Shown here piece by piece: positions 9,499-11,500 of a stretch of DNA of 64,000 bases. The stretch comes from a virus (taxonomy: Duplodnaviria > Heunggongvirae > Uroviricota > Caudoviricetes). How positions within the stretch are numbered: position 1 is the first letter of the stretch; every line of letters starts with the position of its first letter. The position numbers and the translations under genes were made by a program. Location: the IMG/VR virus record IMGVR_UViG_3300020576_001727, positions 103,062 to 167,061 of that record, one strand, 5' to 3'. Under the pieces are notes generated by a model. That model was given only the letters and a program-made list of their open reading frames with translations, was not told the DNA's origin and did no database searches.

Positions 9499-10577
9499 AC
9501 ATTGATTTGATTTTGCCGTATGTGAAGCGTTATGCGAAAAAGAATGAAGAAAATTTGATTGCTTATGTAATGGAACATAAGGGTTCTATTCTGAAAAAAT
9601 TGGGAGAAACAGAACTCTTTTTGCTGGTTACAGGTCATGCCTTTCATGAAAACGAAGCCGATTTTGTGTTTGTTGATTATAACAGACTTCAAGATGTTGA
9701 AAAGCCTTGGTCTTTTGTTAAGTTAGGCGGCTGGATTGTCTTTGTCATGAACGAACATAATTGGTCTTTGATCAAGAAATTCCGTCAAGCCAATCGTATC
9801 AGTTCTTTTCCGAGAATCGCCGGGGAATTGGTGTTCTTTCAAAAGGAAGATTATGCAAATCGAAAGCCGGTTCCTCCTGCCAATGATAATTCTTTGTTAA
9901 GAATAGCCGATTTCTATGACGAGCCGGGAAGTATTCCGGTTCCGGACCCTGCCGGTTCTCATTTGAAGATCGATTATATTCAGAAATATGGTCAATTCGA
10001 TGCGTTTATCGAAACAGGAACATATCTTGGACAAACTGTTGAACTTATTCGTAATTCTGGACTTCCATTTGAGGAAATTTATTCGATTGAATTGGAACCA
10101 ACTCTTGCCAAGAATGCTCGCAAATATTTCGCGGGCGATACAAGAGTGTTTATTGTTGAAGGCGATTCGGTCGATATAGTGTCCAAAATTTGTAGTCAAA
10201 AATTGGACAACAAGAATGCCACGTTTTGGTTGGATGCACATGCTTCCGGTCCTTTGAAAGGTGGAAGAACCGGTCCAAATCCTCTTGTCGAGGAACTAGA
10301 AGCCATTCGACAAACTGGAAACCCAAATCATACAATCTTGATCGATGATCGCCGCTTGTTTGGTTCTGGCGAATGGGGATTTTTGAAAGAAGAGAAGGTA
10401 ATGGAAATGCTCAATAAAATCAACCCGAATTATACAATTTTGTATCTGGACGGGGAAGTGCCCGAAGATATTATCTGTGCAACAGTTGTCGAGAGAGAAA
10501 TTTCAGTCATTGAGCCTGTTTCAATTGTTGAAAATGCCCAAAATACTGAAATGATGGTCCTAGAGGATTTTGAATGA
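9495..10577 (+). CDS. SAM-dependent methyltransferase (FkbM/class I-like)
   Basis: FIETGTYLGQTVE...IELEP...IVEGDS motifs. Confidence 0.5.
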   Translation: MNIDLILPYVKRYAKKNEENLIAYVMEHKGSILKKLGETELFLLVTGHAFHENEADFVFVDYNRLQDVEKPWSFVKLGGWIVFVMNEHNWSLIKKFRQANRISSFPRIAGELVFFQKEDYANRKPVPPANDNSLLRIADFYDEPGSIPVPDPAGSHLKIDYIQKYGQFDAFIETGTYLGQTVELIRNSGLPFEEIYSIELEPTLAKNARKYFAGDTRVFIVEGDSVDIVSKICSQKLDNKNATFWLDAHASGPLKGGRTGPNPLVEELEAIRQTGNPNHTILIDDRRLFGSGEWGFLKEEKVMEMLNKINPNYTILYLDGEVPEDIICATVVEREISVIEPVSIVENAQNTEMMVLEDFE

Positions 10578-11500
10578 AAATAATCAAGCTTGGGTTTGTC
10601 GATACGTTTGATGGAACGGCTGAATTCTTTCTTGATACCTTGAAGGAATTATTCACTCTCGATATCAAGGATGAATTTTCTGGTGATATCTATGAGTTTG
10701 AACGCAATGATACAGACCCAAATATTCTCTTTTTTGGGGATGAAAACTTTGGCACTCGTAACTTGTCTTACGATCCGTCCAAAGTTCTGAAAATCTTCTA
10801 TACAGGAGAGAATCGACGTTTCTATAACTATCAGTGTCATTACGGAATCACTTTCGACCATATCGATGATGACCGGCATTTCCGTTTGCCTCTATATCTC
10901 CTGAATATGCATTACTTGAAAGAAAGACATAAAATCAGTTGGATGCCTGAATGGAAGCGCCGGGCTGATACTATGTCAACCAACAAGGATTATGATCGCG
11001 CATTCTGTGGTTATGTTCAAGCCAATCCCAACTGTGAAAAGCGTAATGATTTTTTCCAGAAATTGAATGCATACAAAAAGATCGACTCGGCTGGACCGCA
11101 TTTCAATAATACGGGCTTCATCCTTCCTAGAGGCGAAGATGGAATTCTGAAAAAAATGGATTTCCTTCGTGAAAAGAAATTCACTCTTGCATTCGAGAAT
11201 GGTTCATATCCCGGTTATGCAACAGAGAAGCTTTTGGAAGCGTGGTTGGCGGGAACGGTCCCGATCTATTGGGGTTCACCAACGGTCGCACTCGATTTCA
11301 ATCCGAAGGCTTTCATCAACTGGCATGATTTCTCGGATGATGGCAAGTTTATTGAATACATCAAGTTGGTCGATAGCGACAAATATATCTATAACGCAAT
11401 TCGCAATCAGCCTTTGTTTGTTGATTATGGTTATTATGATGGTTGGGAAAGTAGATTCTATAACTGGTTTAATAGAATAATCGAAAGACACATTCAATGA
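10574..11500 (+). CDS. GT10-family alpha-1,3/4-fucosyltransferase-like glycosyltransferase
   Basis: [30 protein letters not shown] matches FucT FxFENSxxxxYVTEK...VPIYxG signature. Confidence 0.6.
   Translation: [308 protein letters not shown]

Follow-up and report, generated by a model that had tools for sequence, protein, structure and literature searches.

A family 10 fucosyltransferase-like gene in a conserved glycan gene island of uncultured T4-like phages

What would a fucosyltransferase be doing among the replication genes of a phage? The question is raised by the open reading frame at 10574..11500 (+ strand) of the 64-kb stretch of phage DNA analysed here (hereafter, the window). The original prediction took it for a phage-encoded fucosyltransferase-like enzyme of glycosyltransferase family 10 (GT10), and the gene was found just as described, with an ATG start, a product of 308 aa and the motif on which that prediction was based at residues 205-234. 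Both Pfam domains of the family scored above gathering: residues 8-110 matched FucT_N, the N-terminal acceptor domain (PF18025, 50 bits vs a cut-off of 27.2), and residues 147-274 matched Glyco_transf_10 (PF00852, 64.5 bits vs 23.9, E = 1.3e-17). In the PDB, the protein matched the Helicobacter pylori alpha1,3-fucosyltransferase (FucT) over both domains (2nzw, E = 8.2e-34), a second H. pylori FucT structure (5zoi, E = 4.4e-33) and, more weakly, plant FucTA, human FUT9 and another FucT. The FucT_N part also aligned with 2nzw residues 62-137, and the alignment to the 371-aa crystallised 2nzw construct stopped near chain residue 313, its envelope reaching 341, with no part of the phage protein left over outside the catalytic core. 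Such homology to solved GT-B structures over both domains points to a GT-B two-Rossmann fold. All top matches were GT10 proteins, and the phage protein has no family in PHROGs v4 or in NCBIfam.

The gene is under purifying selection, with a dN/dS of 0.10 measured against the orthologue of the related locus L003. A GAGGA ribosome-binding site lies 7 nt 5' of its start, ATGA start/stop overlaps join it to the upstream and downstream neighbours alike, and it is translationally coupled to both. The encoded protein is soluble (maximum 19-residue hydropathy of 0.79). Judged by its sequence, 10574..11500 is a genuine family 10 fucosyltransferase gene.

The 30-residue motif (11186..11275, + strand) carries the alpha1,3-FucT signature FxLxFENx5YxTEK and aligns with 2nzw residues 236-265. 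It had been said to match the GT10 signature almost residue for residue, which is somewhat generous, as 16 of the 30 residues are identical to those of H. pylori FucT; all positions of the family signature F-x-L-x-F-E-N-x5-Y-x-T-E-K (also written FxL/VxFENx5YxTEK) are nevertheless satisfied, from F203 to K219. The motif was kept on realignment, with E208, N209, G214, Y215, T217, E218 and K219 invariant in 28 homologues. The same held for the six catalytic and GDP-fucose-binding residues E79, R157, N209, Y215, E218 and K219 (6/6 invariant in the 28 homologues), which align with H. pylori FucT E95, R195, N240, Y246, E249 and K250. E79 corresponds to the catalytic Glu within the YTGEN segment (E95 in H. 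pylori, E137 in FUT9) and is the predicted catalytic base, the other five residues being predicted to bind the donor. Glu95 marks the H. pylori FucT active site (PMC6785251); in FUT9, Glu137 is the base and Arg202/Lys256 act on the diphosphate, with an equivalent role for Asn246 too (PMC12717137).

The phage setting was equally borne out. The window comes from a contig of 170,332 bp that encodes T4-type gp45, gp44, gp62, RegA, gp43, UvsX and gp41, whose genes follow the T4-like order gp45-gp44-gp62-regA ... gp43-uvsX-gp41. The DNA polymerase is only 43-44% identical to that of any cultured phage, cyanophages included, and the phage is a member of a distinct uncultured T4-like lineage. The host markers psbA and psbD were absent from the window and from every locus examined.

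How unusual such a gene is depends on which phages are considered. The statement that GT10 is not a typical phage function holds for cultured phages only. Just 14 of 50,697 phage records gave any tblastn match to the GT10 protein, and more than 60% of it was covered only in S-SKS1 and in one uncultured 484-kb phage; megablast with the 8 kb around the gene found no match in the same records, and these searches placed the exact cassette described below in no cultured phage. Among uncultured phages, in contrast, GT10 is common: at least 460 stretches in IMG/VR contain a relative, and metagenomes yielded 1,278 proteins related to the phage enzyme. Nor is GT10 in a phage unprecedented, as it was annotated earlier in the cyanophages S-SKS1 and S-SCSM2R.

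We have sampled 80 viral contigs out of the at least 460 with a GT10 relative. A core cassette of a GT2-like, a GT8-like and the GT10 gene occupied the same position in most of them (GT2-like in 69/80 and GT8-like in 62/80 GT10 loci), and independent T4-like contigs of 90-170 kb have it between regA/dcd and gp43. The phage GT10s form a single clade, apart from the cellular GT10s. Cellular relatives are widespread in bacteria, and one of the loci examined, L013, is genuinely bacterial. Three top matches labelled cellular (L011, L012 and L014) bear the phage cassette, L012 also with regA and dcd, and look like mis-binned phage contigs.

In the window, the GT10 gene belongs to a 12.6-kb island of co-directional genes (all on the + strand) that encodes soluble proteins only. 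Hydropathy revealed no transmembrane segment in any of its products, the only hydrophobic 19-mer above 1.6 being the Rossmann N-terminus of a dehydrogenase. The first cassette gene (7749..8474) would encode a GT2-type GT-A glycosyltransferase with an invariant D105-x-D107. Its Pfam GT2 score (22.3 bits) was slightly under the cut-off and a PDB search with the single sequence gave no match, and its family profile matched SpsA (1h7l, 7.7e-5) and the PglI-type glucosyltransferase 9jma. The second (8455..9498; product u8455, with invariant D150..D153) has no Pfam family. Its AlphaFold2 model (pLDDT 87.9) retrieved the UGGT catalytic domain from the PDB with Foldseek (3.5e-8), along with WbbM, LgtC, GlyE, LARGE1 and glycogenin, suggestive of a GT-A fold, GT8/GT24-like glycosyltransferase; the GT8 and GT24 families are retaining. 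Between u8455 and GT10 lies the gene of a two-domain protein (u9495, 9495..10577) that is translationally coupled to GT10. The C-terminal domain of u9495 (~residues 155-332), which other loci encode as a separate protein of ~190 aa, is weakly assigned as a putative SAM-dependent O-methyltransferase: the domain profile matched the O-methyltransferase YrrM (5zw3, 1.1e-3) and COMT (~0.1), one member of the domain family matched Methyltransf_24 (0.075), and the single u9495 sequence matched nothing in Pfam or the PDB.

Downstream of GT10, and coupled to it, 11497..12210 encodes a GT-A fold glycosyltransferase of the DUF7796 type (u11497), whose homologues bear PF25072. Foldseek with its AlphaFold2 model (pLDDT 92.2) found glycogenin (9e-6), ABO GTA/GTB and BoGT6a in the PDB, and proteins of Catovirus (TM 0.72), S-PRM1, S-SKS1 and chlorovirus MT325 (M177L) in BFVD. 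The next gene (12207..12632) is an HNH homing endonuclease (PF13392 and several HNH PHROGs); it is missing from L003, a relative 81% identical, and its slot is taken by a NUMOD3 endonuclease in loci L004/L005. It is a passenger outside the sugar pathway. A fusion of a HAD (beta-phosphoglucomutase-like) domain with a sugar-1-phosphate nucleotidyltransferase follows (12718..14097) and is predicted to make an NDP-hexose; copies 57-59% identical occur in the cyanophages S-PRM1, DSL-LC03 and S-CAM9, and also in locus L010. After a calcineurin-like metallophosphoesterase (14094..14762; PF00149, 4.9e-16) come two probable GT-A paralogues of the DUF7796 type. The one at 14762..15472 has the motifs KVAL-L-GQ-R and YD-V-R-R-D in common with u11497 and cross-matches the S-PRM1 gene adjoining that phage's own HAD-NTP fusion, and the one at 15456..16229 matches Pfam DUF7796 weakly (E = 0.0021) and cross-matches the DUF7796 gene of L010. 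We consider them paralogues because of the shared motifs, the cross-BLAST and the weak Pfam match; the hhalign E-values were inflated, the profile having contained both sequences themselves.

Most of the remainder of the island would handle nucleotide sugars. A conserved 172-aa protein with a weak DUF7045 match only (16222..16740) travels with the HAD-NTP module and has homologues in L003, L004, L006 (S-PRM1) and L010. It precedes an NDP-sugar 6-dehydrogenase (16741..17940; TIGR03026, 252 bits vs a cut-off of 189.8; PDB 4r16, 8.4e-41, and Cap5O), for which the UDP-ManNAc dehydrogenases are closest. Of the two short-chain dehydrogenases/reductases (SDRs), SDR1 (17952..18932, of the extended type) scored far under every NCBIfam cut-off and gave weak, mixed PDB matches (Pal, GalE, RmlB, GDP-mannose-3,5-epimerase, UXS/ArnA), a profile unlike that of a canonical Gmd or Fcl. 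SDR2 (18929..19888) is probably an NDP-sugar 4-epimerase, with GalE as its best NCBIfam match, under cut-off, and PDB 4zrm at 1.5e-20. The last enzyme is a NUDIX hydrolase (19888..20331; PF00293, 4.1e-19) that reached just 21.6 bits against the GDP-mannose mannosyl hydrolase model, and the co-directional gene chain is closed by a terminator-like hairpin of 15 pairs followed by a T-run (20789..20826, + strand). No Pfam family for the parts of temperate-phage O-antigen conversion modules of the GtrABC or O-acetyltransferase kind (GtrA flippase, GtrB, serotype-specific Gtr, membrane acyltransferase) was found in the island. The T4 late-promoter motif matched four times in the 64 kb, which is chance level, and nowhere near the island, while a sigma-70-like scan, a consensus match only, was enriched (69 hits vs 44 expected). 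Early/middle transcription of the island is suggested by how its genes are arranged and by the lack of TATAAATA motifs.

These data lead us to propose, with good confidence, that the phage GT10 carries out one step of a soluble, phage-encoded line that builds a fucose-containing oligosaccharide. The enzyme is most likely a compact, soluble, inverting GT-B-type transferase that would move L-fucose from GDP-beta-L-fucose to an acceptor hydroxyl, where the fucose donor, the inversion and the sugar acceptor are what we infer from the family. E79 would serve as general base, the charge of the departing diphosphate would be offset by R157 and K219, and N209, Y215 and E218 would hold the donor. Its likely co-workers are the GT2-type GT-A, the GT8/GT24-like GT-A, the putative O-methyltransferase, the three DUF7796 GT-A paralogues and the nucleotide-sugar enzymes. 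The product may be a fucose-containing, possibly methylated oligosaccharide made in the cytoplasm of the infected cell, from an island that appears co-transcribed with the replication genes.

The source of the donor deserves attention, as neither Gmd nor Fcl was found in the ~9 kb upstream flank or in the window, where profiles as well as tblastn with authentic phage Gmd/Fcl queries were used. GDP-fucose would hence come from the host or from the other ~94 kb of the contig, or would not be the donor. We have considered whether the island SDRs and the NUDIX hydrolase could serve as Gmd, Fcl and Gmm in a colanic-acid-like manner, and rejected this on equivalog scores far under cut-off and mixed PDB matches. 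For the dehydrogenase and the SDRs we did not adopt a UDP-GlcA, UDP-xylose, UDP-arabinose route, which is possible in principle yet lacks support. GT10 might alternatively transfer L-galactose, D-arabinopyranose or another 6-deoxy-L-hexose, GDP- or NDP-linked, made by the island's own enzymes. This would account for a window that lacks Gmd/Fcl yet encodes an NDP-hexose, dehydrogenase and two-SDR pathway of its own, and SDR1 fits GDP-mannose-3,5-epimerase about as well as its other matches. Furthermore, in ~50/80 related loci the GT10-coupled gene encodes an Fcl-like SDR whose partner dehydratase resembles RmlB and not Gmd, a pairing that could provide a different 6-deoxy-L-hexose donor. We regard such a donor as unlikely: the donor-contacting residues of fucosyltransferases are all invariant, and GDP-fucose is used by every characterised GT10 (reviewed in PMC12717137). 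Genuine Gmd and Fcl also stand beside GT10 in a quarter of related phage loci (within 10 kb in 16-20/80). The L010 island contains a genuine Gmd (551 bits vs a cut-off of 415) together with an Fcl-like enzyme (406 bits), and S-SKS1 has Gmd, Fcl and GT10 in a single cluster.

With GDP-fucose kept as the presumed donor, the question becomes what carries the glycan. We place phage (virion) protein first, as a tentative choice held at somewhat below even confidence; a host envelope glycan intermediate follows closely and has nearly the same probability, DNA is very improbable, and the rest goes to other or unknown carriers. On the first reading, the phage would glycosylate its own virion proteins in the cytoplasm, with no need for host machinery, as chloroviruses, mimiviruses and mycobacteriophages do. 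The make-up of the island speaks for this, being all soluble and free of lipid-carrier priming transferase, flippase, polymerase and ligase, with soluble virus-encoded glycosyltransferases and virus-encoded nucleotide-sugar synthesis both present. So does the glycosyltransferase core, which is conserved, vertically inherited and phage-specific, and suits a conserved phage acceptor over variable host O-antigens. The DUF7796 fold is shared with giant viruses, a chlorovirus protein included, and many of the nearest solved folds of u8455 glycosylate proteins (UGGT, GlyE, glycogenin, LH3). A precedent exists in mycobacteriophage virion glycosylation (Freeman 2023, as cited in PMC12801897), and GT10 itself includes the protein O-fucosyltransferases FUT10 and FUT11 (PMC11949838). 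Against a virion carrier, the island sits in the replication module, away from the structural genes and with no T4-type late promoter motif in its vicinity, and no acceptor protein candidate was identified. We know of no T4-like phage for which glycosylated virions have been reported. The apparent transcription of the island alongside early/middle replication genes suits a second reading, a takeover of the host in which the enzymes would modify lipid-linked LPS, O-antigen or capsule intermediates and so remodel the infected surface, e.g., to block superinfection or to keep progeny off debris. Characterised bacterial GT10s fucosylate LPS O-antigen (H. pylori FutA), GT10 relatives abound in bacteria, and the HAD-NTP module is common to the island and cultured Synechococcus phages. 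Remodelling of this kind is the standard reading of cyanophage "LPS"/cell-wall clusters, which are so interpreted in PMC9602691 and PMC12801897. The island has, however, no membrane or lipid-carrier component, and the phage GT10 has no equivalent of the heptad repeats and amphipathic anchor at the C-terminus of Helicobacter FucT. The glycosyltransferase core is kept across very divergent phages as a clade of its own that does not track host genes, and we know of no experiment in favour of the host-envelope role in any lytic T4-like phage.

A third option is that the sugar chain is built on phage DNA as a hypermodification, comparable to the glucosyl-hmC of T4 or the arabinosyl-/hexosyl-5-hydroxycytosine of RB69/DLP3/RL38J1. 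The location would fit, in a replication/nucleotide-metabolism module where a dCTP deaminase/dUTPase-family gene immediately precedes the island and a gp1-like dNMP kinase lies close by; DNA modifications of several sugars exist, and the arabinosyl-DNA pathway also has a HAD domain and a nucleotidyltransferase (PMC13326640). All known pathways are nonetheless anchored by a phage-encoded ThyA-family 5hm-/5ho-dCMP synthase, whose gene usually adjoins those of the DNA glycosyltransferases, and we consider a DNA carrier unlikely because no ThyA-type synthase was found in the window and the ~9 kb flank of the contig: PF00303 matched none of the window ORFs of at least 200 aa, and the upstream flank had no such synthase either. 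Homologues of T4 gp42, beta-gt and alpha-gt were likewise missing from the window and from ~170 loci (tblastn; gp42 at E <= 1e-3), and the syntenic gp43-uvsX slot is empty. The known DNA glycosyltransferases are of GT4, GT63 and GT72 type, not GT10/GT-A, the partners here being GT-A, and the phage has an ordinary N6/N4 DNA methyltransferase and a Lar-type protein. 

Clusters of "LPS"/cell-wall genes have been on record for cyanophages since the mid-2000s, and we know of none with an assigned target. Our results show that not all of such a cluster is a chance assortment of host genes. Its core is a conserved, phage-specific, purifying-selected cassette of three glycosyltransferases, with a fucosyltransferase at its centre, at one fixed location within the T4-type replication module of hundreds of uncultured phages. 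The cassette offers a tractable set of small soluble enzymes for the choice between virion and host surface, with S-SKS1 as a cultured proxy. If active, GT10 would be a compact 300-aa soluble enzyme that may serve enzymatic fucosylation. One possible extension of the virion-protein reading, which we put forward at a confidence well short of even, is that a large lineage of uncultured T4-like aquatic phages decorates its own virion proteins with a fucose-containing oligosaccharide, using only soluble phage enzymes from a vertically inherited, fixed-position cassette (GT2-like, GT8-like and GT10, along with DUF7796 glycosyltransferases, a methyltransferase and nucleotide-sugar genes that vary). 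If this is true, the cassette would be a bacterial-virus counterpart of chlorovirus/mimivirus capsid glycosylation, with DUF7796 common to two virus realms.

Compared with known systems, the phage enzyme conserves both domains, the signature, the Glu and the donor set of H. pylori FutA (alpha-(1,3/4), CAZy GT10; PDB 2NZW, 2NZY, 5ZOI), and a FutA-like inverting, metal-independent GT-B mechanism is presumed. It differs in its low overall identity to FutA, limited to about half of the residues even in the best-conserved motif, and in its size of 308 aa, without the C-terminal heptad repeats, the amphipathic membrane-anchor helices or a counterpart of the acceptor-selectivity region. Its gene resides in a lytic-type phage and not in an LPS locus, so that a Lewis-antigen product is not implied; nothing in our analysis supports the Lewis-antigen role evoked by the original prediction. 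The human enzymes FUT10/FUT11 (POFUT3/4), which fucosylate Ser/Thr of folded protein domains directly (PMC11949838, PMC12717137), belong to the same CAZy family, whereas the phage GT10 is most similar to bacterial sequences of the FutA type.

Phage DNA glycosylation systems (T4, RB69/DLP3, RL38J1) resemble the island in placing glycosyltransferases in or near the T4-type replication module, with a HAD phosphatase, a nucleotidyltransferase and a dNMP kinase. They differ by their ThyA-family synthase, dCTPase and GT-B DNA transferases, all absent from the examined window and flank, and the island's six glycosyltransferases (GT-A plus GT10) have no parallel in DNA modification. The giant viruses (chlorovirus PBCV-1, mimiviruses) have soluble viral glycosyltransferases, methyltransferase domains and nucleotide-sugar synthesis acting in the cytoplasm, and the DUF7796 fold is common to the island and to Catovirus, Tupanvirus, chlorovirus MT325 and CroV proteins. 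PBCV-1 builds capsid glycans that contain fucose, with GDP-fucose synthesis encoded by the virus itself; we know of no GT10 in the chlorovirus or mimivirus glycosylation systems. These are eukaryotic viruses, and for the phage lineage virion glycosylation is a proposal.

A cultured phage with a related cluster, S-SKS1 (HQ633071), encodes Gmd (SWZG_00055), Fcl (SWZG_00054) and an "alpha-1,4 fucosyltransferase" (SWZG_00049), a GT10 homologue with 36.6% identity over 69% of the query. Its likeness extends to three DUF7796-fold proteins, a nucleotidyltransferase and nucleotide-sugar SDRs in a single co-directional cluster, for whose function we found nothing in the literature. S-SKS1 is a siphovirus-type and not a T4-like cyanophage, the GT10 annotation in its genome covers a fragment of 190 aa, and it has its own Gmd and Fcl (none in the window), without GT2-like/GT8-like partners in the same arrangement. 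The cell-wall/LPS clusters of T4-like cyanophages (P-SSM2, S-SCSM1, S-SCSM2R) combine many glycosyltransferases and nucleotide-sugar enzymes, as the island does. S-SCSM1 has Gmd, Fcl and GME with GT11, NodZ and POFUT-type fucosyltransferases (PMC9602691), and ORF240 of S-SCSM2R is a 267-aa "Glycosyltransferase family 10" (PMC12801897). The gene content of the island fits these clusters and its HAD-NTP module shares 59% identity with genes of Synechococcus phages, but with a polymerase only 43-44% identical to those of cyanophages and no psbA or psbD in the sequence covered, a cyanobacterial host is no more than a candidate. The cyanophage clusters are described from very large (>200 kb) genomes and are read as host-surface modifiers, whereas here the glycosyltransferase core is a fixed-position, vertically inherited cassette between regA/dcd and gp43.

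The open reading frame predicted to encode a family 10 glycosyltransferase (GT10) resembling fucosyltransferases in a phage was confirmed at 10574-11500 (+ strand, ATG start, 308 aa), with the 30-residue GT10 motif on which this had been based lying at residues 205-234 (nt 11186-11275). Its GT10 membership was also borne out, beyond chance, by both Pfam domains (PF00852 Glyco_transf_10, 64.5 bits vs gathering score 23.9; the N-terminal PF18025 FucT_N, 50 bits vs 27.2) and by solved fucosyltransferases. The Helicobacter pylori alpha1,3-fucosyltransferases 2nzw (E = 8e-34) and 5zoi (E = 4e-33) aligned across both domains, followed in rank by plant FucTA, human FUT9 and another fucosyltransferase. 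The phage protein and H. pylori FucT share 16 of the 30 motif residues, and all positions of the signature FxLxFENx5YxTEK are satisfied. The alignment pairs phage E79, R157, N209, Y215, E218 and K219 with H. pylori E95, R195, N240, Y246, E249 and K250. Glu95 is an active-site marker of the H. pylori enzyme (PMC6785251), and among the FUT9 equivalents Glu137 is the catalytic base, Arg202 and Lys256 bind the diphosphate and Asn246 contacts the donor (PMC12717137). The six residues were invariant across 28 aligned homologues (45-84% identity to the query), and comparison with the 84%-identical orthologue gave a dN/dS of 0.10 (dN 0.098, dS 0.963). The GC content of the gene is like that of the surrounding sequence. 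No hydrophobic segment was found in the protein. Unlike Helicobacter FutA, which has C-terminal heptad repeats and an amphipathic anchor, the phage GT10 stops right after the catalytic core and thus lacks this region, for which the structure-sequence alignment revealed no counterpart.

An identical GT10 protein was found on a 170,332-bp JGI metagenome contig (Ga0364480_10126), the window being its positions about 103,062-167,061. The window carries a T4-type replication module that begins with a CobS-like AAA protein, gp1-like dNMP kinase, gp45, a DsbA-like protein, gp44, gp62, RegA and a dCTP-deaminase/dUTPase-family protein, continues with the sugar-gene island and a ~29-kb stretch with small ORFs and homing endonuclease genes, and ends with gp43 polymerase, UvsX and gp41. 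The best cultured relatives of gp43 are T4-like Synechococcus phages (43-44% identity); megablast returned no close phage relative, psbA and psbD were not found in the sequence seen, and several related sequences came from freshwater MAG projects.

Between the CobS-like and dNMP kinase genes, a 268-aa ORF (2439-3245), 98% conserved in the 81%-identical relative L003, gave a weak, below-cut-off match to Anp1 (GT62 mannosyltransferase, E = 4.9e-5) and could represent an extra GT encoded away from the island. Elsewhere, matches were obtained to an SPFH/Band-7 protein (31574-32446, E = 4.5e-24) and a second metallophosphoesterase (46211-46696), and weak ones, all below cut-off, to MotA/ExbB (57326-57778), a Macro domain (38188-38700) and PTH2 (56368-57006). 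At 61395-62302 (L173, 1152-2059) lie genes of anti-restriction type, an ORF with weak similarity to Gad2 and after it one for a Lar restriction-alleviation protein, and the upstream flank (L172, 3237-4043) encodes an N6/N4 DNA methyltransferase ~6.8 kb before the window start.

All genes of the island (7749-20331) are on the + strand and abut or overlap their neighbors. The first encodes a GT2-type GT-A with an invariant D105-x-D107 (Pfam GT2 just below cut-off; family profile vs SpsA, 7.7e-5). The second, u8455, has no Pfam family and contains invariant D150 and D153; its AlphaFold2 model (pLDDT 88) matched the UGGT catalytic domain (3.5e-8) as well as LgtC, GlyE, LARGE1 and glycogenin, and is that of a predicted GT8/GT24-like GT-A. 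The third product is a two-domain protein with a C-terminal half weakly like SAM O-methyltransferases. The GT10 gene comes fourth, with a GAGGA ribosome-binding site and an ATGA start/stop overlap with the gene on each side. It is followed by a DUF7796 protein (11497-12210), which from its model (pLDDT 92) is a putative GT-A closest to glycogenin and ABO/BoGT6a transferases. Next come an HNH homing endonuclease (12207-12632), a beta-phosphoglucomutase-like HAD domain fused to a sugar-1-phosphate nucleotidyltransferase (HAD-NTP, 12718-14097), a metallophosphoesterase, two more DUF7796-like paralogues (14762-15472 and 15456-16229; the profile compared by hhalign already contained both sequences, which inflated the values), a conserved protein of unknown function, an NDP-sugar 6-dehydrogenase (TIGR03026, 252 bits), two extended SDRs and a NUDIX hydrolase. 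No island protein has a membrane segment. A strong terminator-like hairpin lies 3' of the island (20789-20826) and no T4-type late promoter motif was found nearby, from which we infer that the island would be transcribed together with the replication genes.

The window contains at least nine homing-endonuclease-like ORFs in 64 kb (GIY-YIG/SegE, HNH, HNH-AP2, NUMOD3), a density high even for a T4-like phage: four on the - strand (4851-5438, 26236-26874, 28857-29498, 55202-55870) and those at 12207-12632, 30755-31357, 32642-33196, 36292-36981 and 48354-48842. The HNH gene between the DUF7796 and HAD-NTP genes is missing from L003 (cf. L003 11604), and loci L004 and L005 have an unrelated NUMOD3-type endonuclease in the same slot (L004 11966-12706), so separate insertions seem to have hit this site at least twice. 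The adjacent HAD-NTP gene has a dS of 0.16 to its L003 counterpart (11604-12971), against 0.73-0.96 for its neighbors, a difference that may reflect recent recombination or gene conversion over a tract beside the homing endonuclease.

We have then considered how the GT10 gene and its partners are distributed. With E-values below 1e-5, 1,278 homologues came from a large protein database; the top 120 were all ~280-320 aa long with both GT10 domains. Six long contigs sampled (54-170 kb) were all T4-like and had GT10 at one same place, between regA/dcd and gp43; the more distant of the six also had HSP20, PstS, ThyX and PAAR genes, which are typical of cyanomyoviruses. IMG/VR contributed at least 460 confirmed stretches with a GT10 relative, and the best 80 (42-49% identical) carried, within the fetched flanks, the GT2-like gene in 69 cases and u8455 in 62. 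The top genuinely bacterial matches among species-representative cellular genomes were ~31-40% identical and came from many phyla. Three "MAG" contigs outscored them; these look like mis-binned phage, since they have the phage cassette, one of them (L012) also with regA and dcd.

In a simple neighbor-joining distance tree of 165 sequences (88 phage, 77 cellular), the common ancestor of all phage GT10s took in a single cellular sequence, the other 76 falling outside. This exception (L013, 5977-6885, alphaproteobacterial MAG CANJIS010000004.1) is 54% identical to viral locus L153 and lies in a genuinely bacterial context, with MBOAT and FkbH-like genes upstream and aroA-cmk-rpsA downstream. It looks like a single phage-bacterium transfer and may hint at a host lineage or at transfer from phage to bacterium. 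The fixed position, the recurrence of the cassette and the near-exclusive phage clade argue that the GT core (GT2-like, u8455, GT10) is an old, vertically inherited and phage-specific cassette.

Phage GT10 is already known as an annotation. The GenBank record of cultured Synechococcus phage S-SKS1 names its homologue alpha-1,4 fucosyltransferase, S-SCSM2R has an ORF listed as 'Glycosyltransferase family 10' (PMC12801897), and S-SCSM1 encodes Gmd, Fcl and GME along with fucosyltransferases of three other families (PMC9602691). The cassette itself occurs in no cultured phage; S-SKS1, which grows on Synechococcus WH7803, combines GT10 with three DUF7796 proteins, Gmd and Fcl. The literature examined contained no earlier description of the conserved three-GT cassette and its fixed replication-module position, of the single-clade origin and abundance of the phage group, or of the folds assigned here to the two partner families that lacked annotation.

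The glycan may be carried by a virion or other phage protein, a reading we favor only tentatively. The toolkit is entirely soluble and its core conserved, many of the nearest folds of the GT8-like partner glycosylate proteins, and the GT10 family contains protein O-fucosyltransferases (PMC11949838). The DUF7796 fold also occurs in giant viruses, a chlorovirus protein among the examples. However, no structural genes lie near the island and a late promoter is absent. Remodeling of the host envelope is about as likely: it is the default literature reading of cyanophage 'LPS' genes (PMC9602691, PMC12801897) and suits the apparent early/middle timing of the island, but no membrane-associated component is encoded and a conserved phage-specific core is unlike genes tracking variable host O-antigens. 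Glycosylation of DNA is highly improbable. Multi-sugar DNA modifications do exist in T4-like and other phages (2026 NAR paper, glycosylated 5-hydroxycytosine), but all of these pathways are built around a ThyA-family synthase adjoining GT-B transferases. The large ORFs of the window gave no thymidylate-synthase family match, the syntenic slot at the gp43-uvsX junction is empty, searches with T4 gp42, b-gt and a-gt found no match in the window or ~170 loci, and the flanks carry the N6/N4 methyltransferase and Lar-type protein instead.

DUF7796 (11497-12210, with the probable paralogues at 14762-15472 and 15456-16229) is a predicted GT-A fold family that is apparently enriched in viruses. Its best structural matches, to uncharacterized proteins, came from Catovirus, Tupanvirus, chlorovirus MT325 (M177L), Fadolivirus and CroV and from the cyanophages S-PRM1 and S-SKS1 (three copies).

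Nucleotide-sugar accessory genes vary among loci, whereas the GT core is constant. The dehydrogenase/SDR set of the window is common to only ~4 of the 80 viral loci, and in ~50 the gene immediately preceding GT10 encodes an Fcl-like SDR and there is also an RmlB-like dehydratase. Phage locus L010 encodes a genuine Gmd (551 bits vs 415) and an Fcl-like enzyme (406 bits) adjoining the same HAD-NTP fusion, Gmd and Fcl lie ≤10 kb from GT10 in 16-20/80 loci, and in S-SKS1 a single cluster contains Gmd, Fcl and GT10. This gene neighborhood supports GDP-fucose as the probable donor of the phage family. Neither Gmd nor Fcl was found in the 64-kb window or its ~9 kb upstream flank, so the donor would come from the host or the rest of the genome, or be a different L-sugar, the last being unlikely. 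In most related phages (L008 8977-10008 and 11755-12795; ~50/80 loci), GT10 is translationally coupled to the Fcl-like SDR, and the accompanying 4,6-dehydratase is RmlB-like, not Gmd-like; the pair is similar in this to the UDP-L-rhamnose route of giant viruses, likewise made up of two enzymes.
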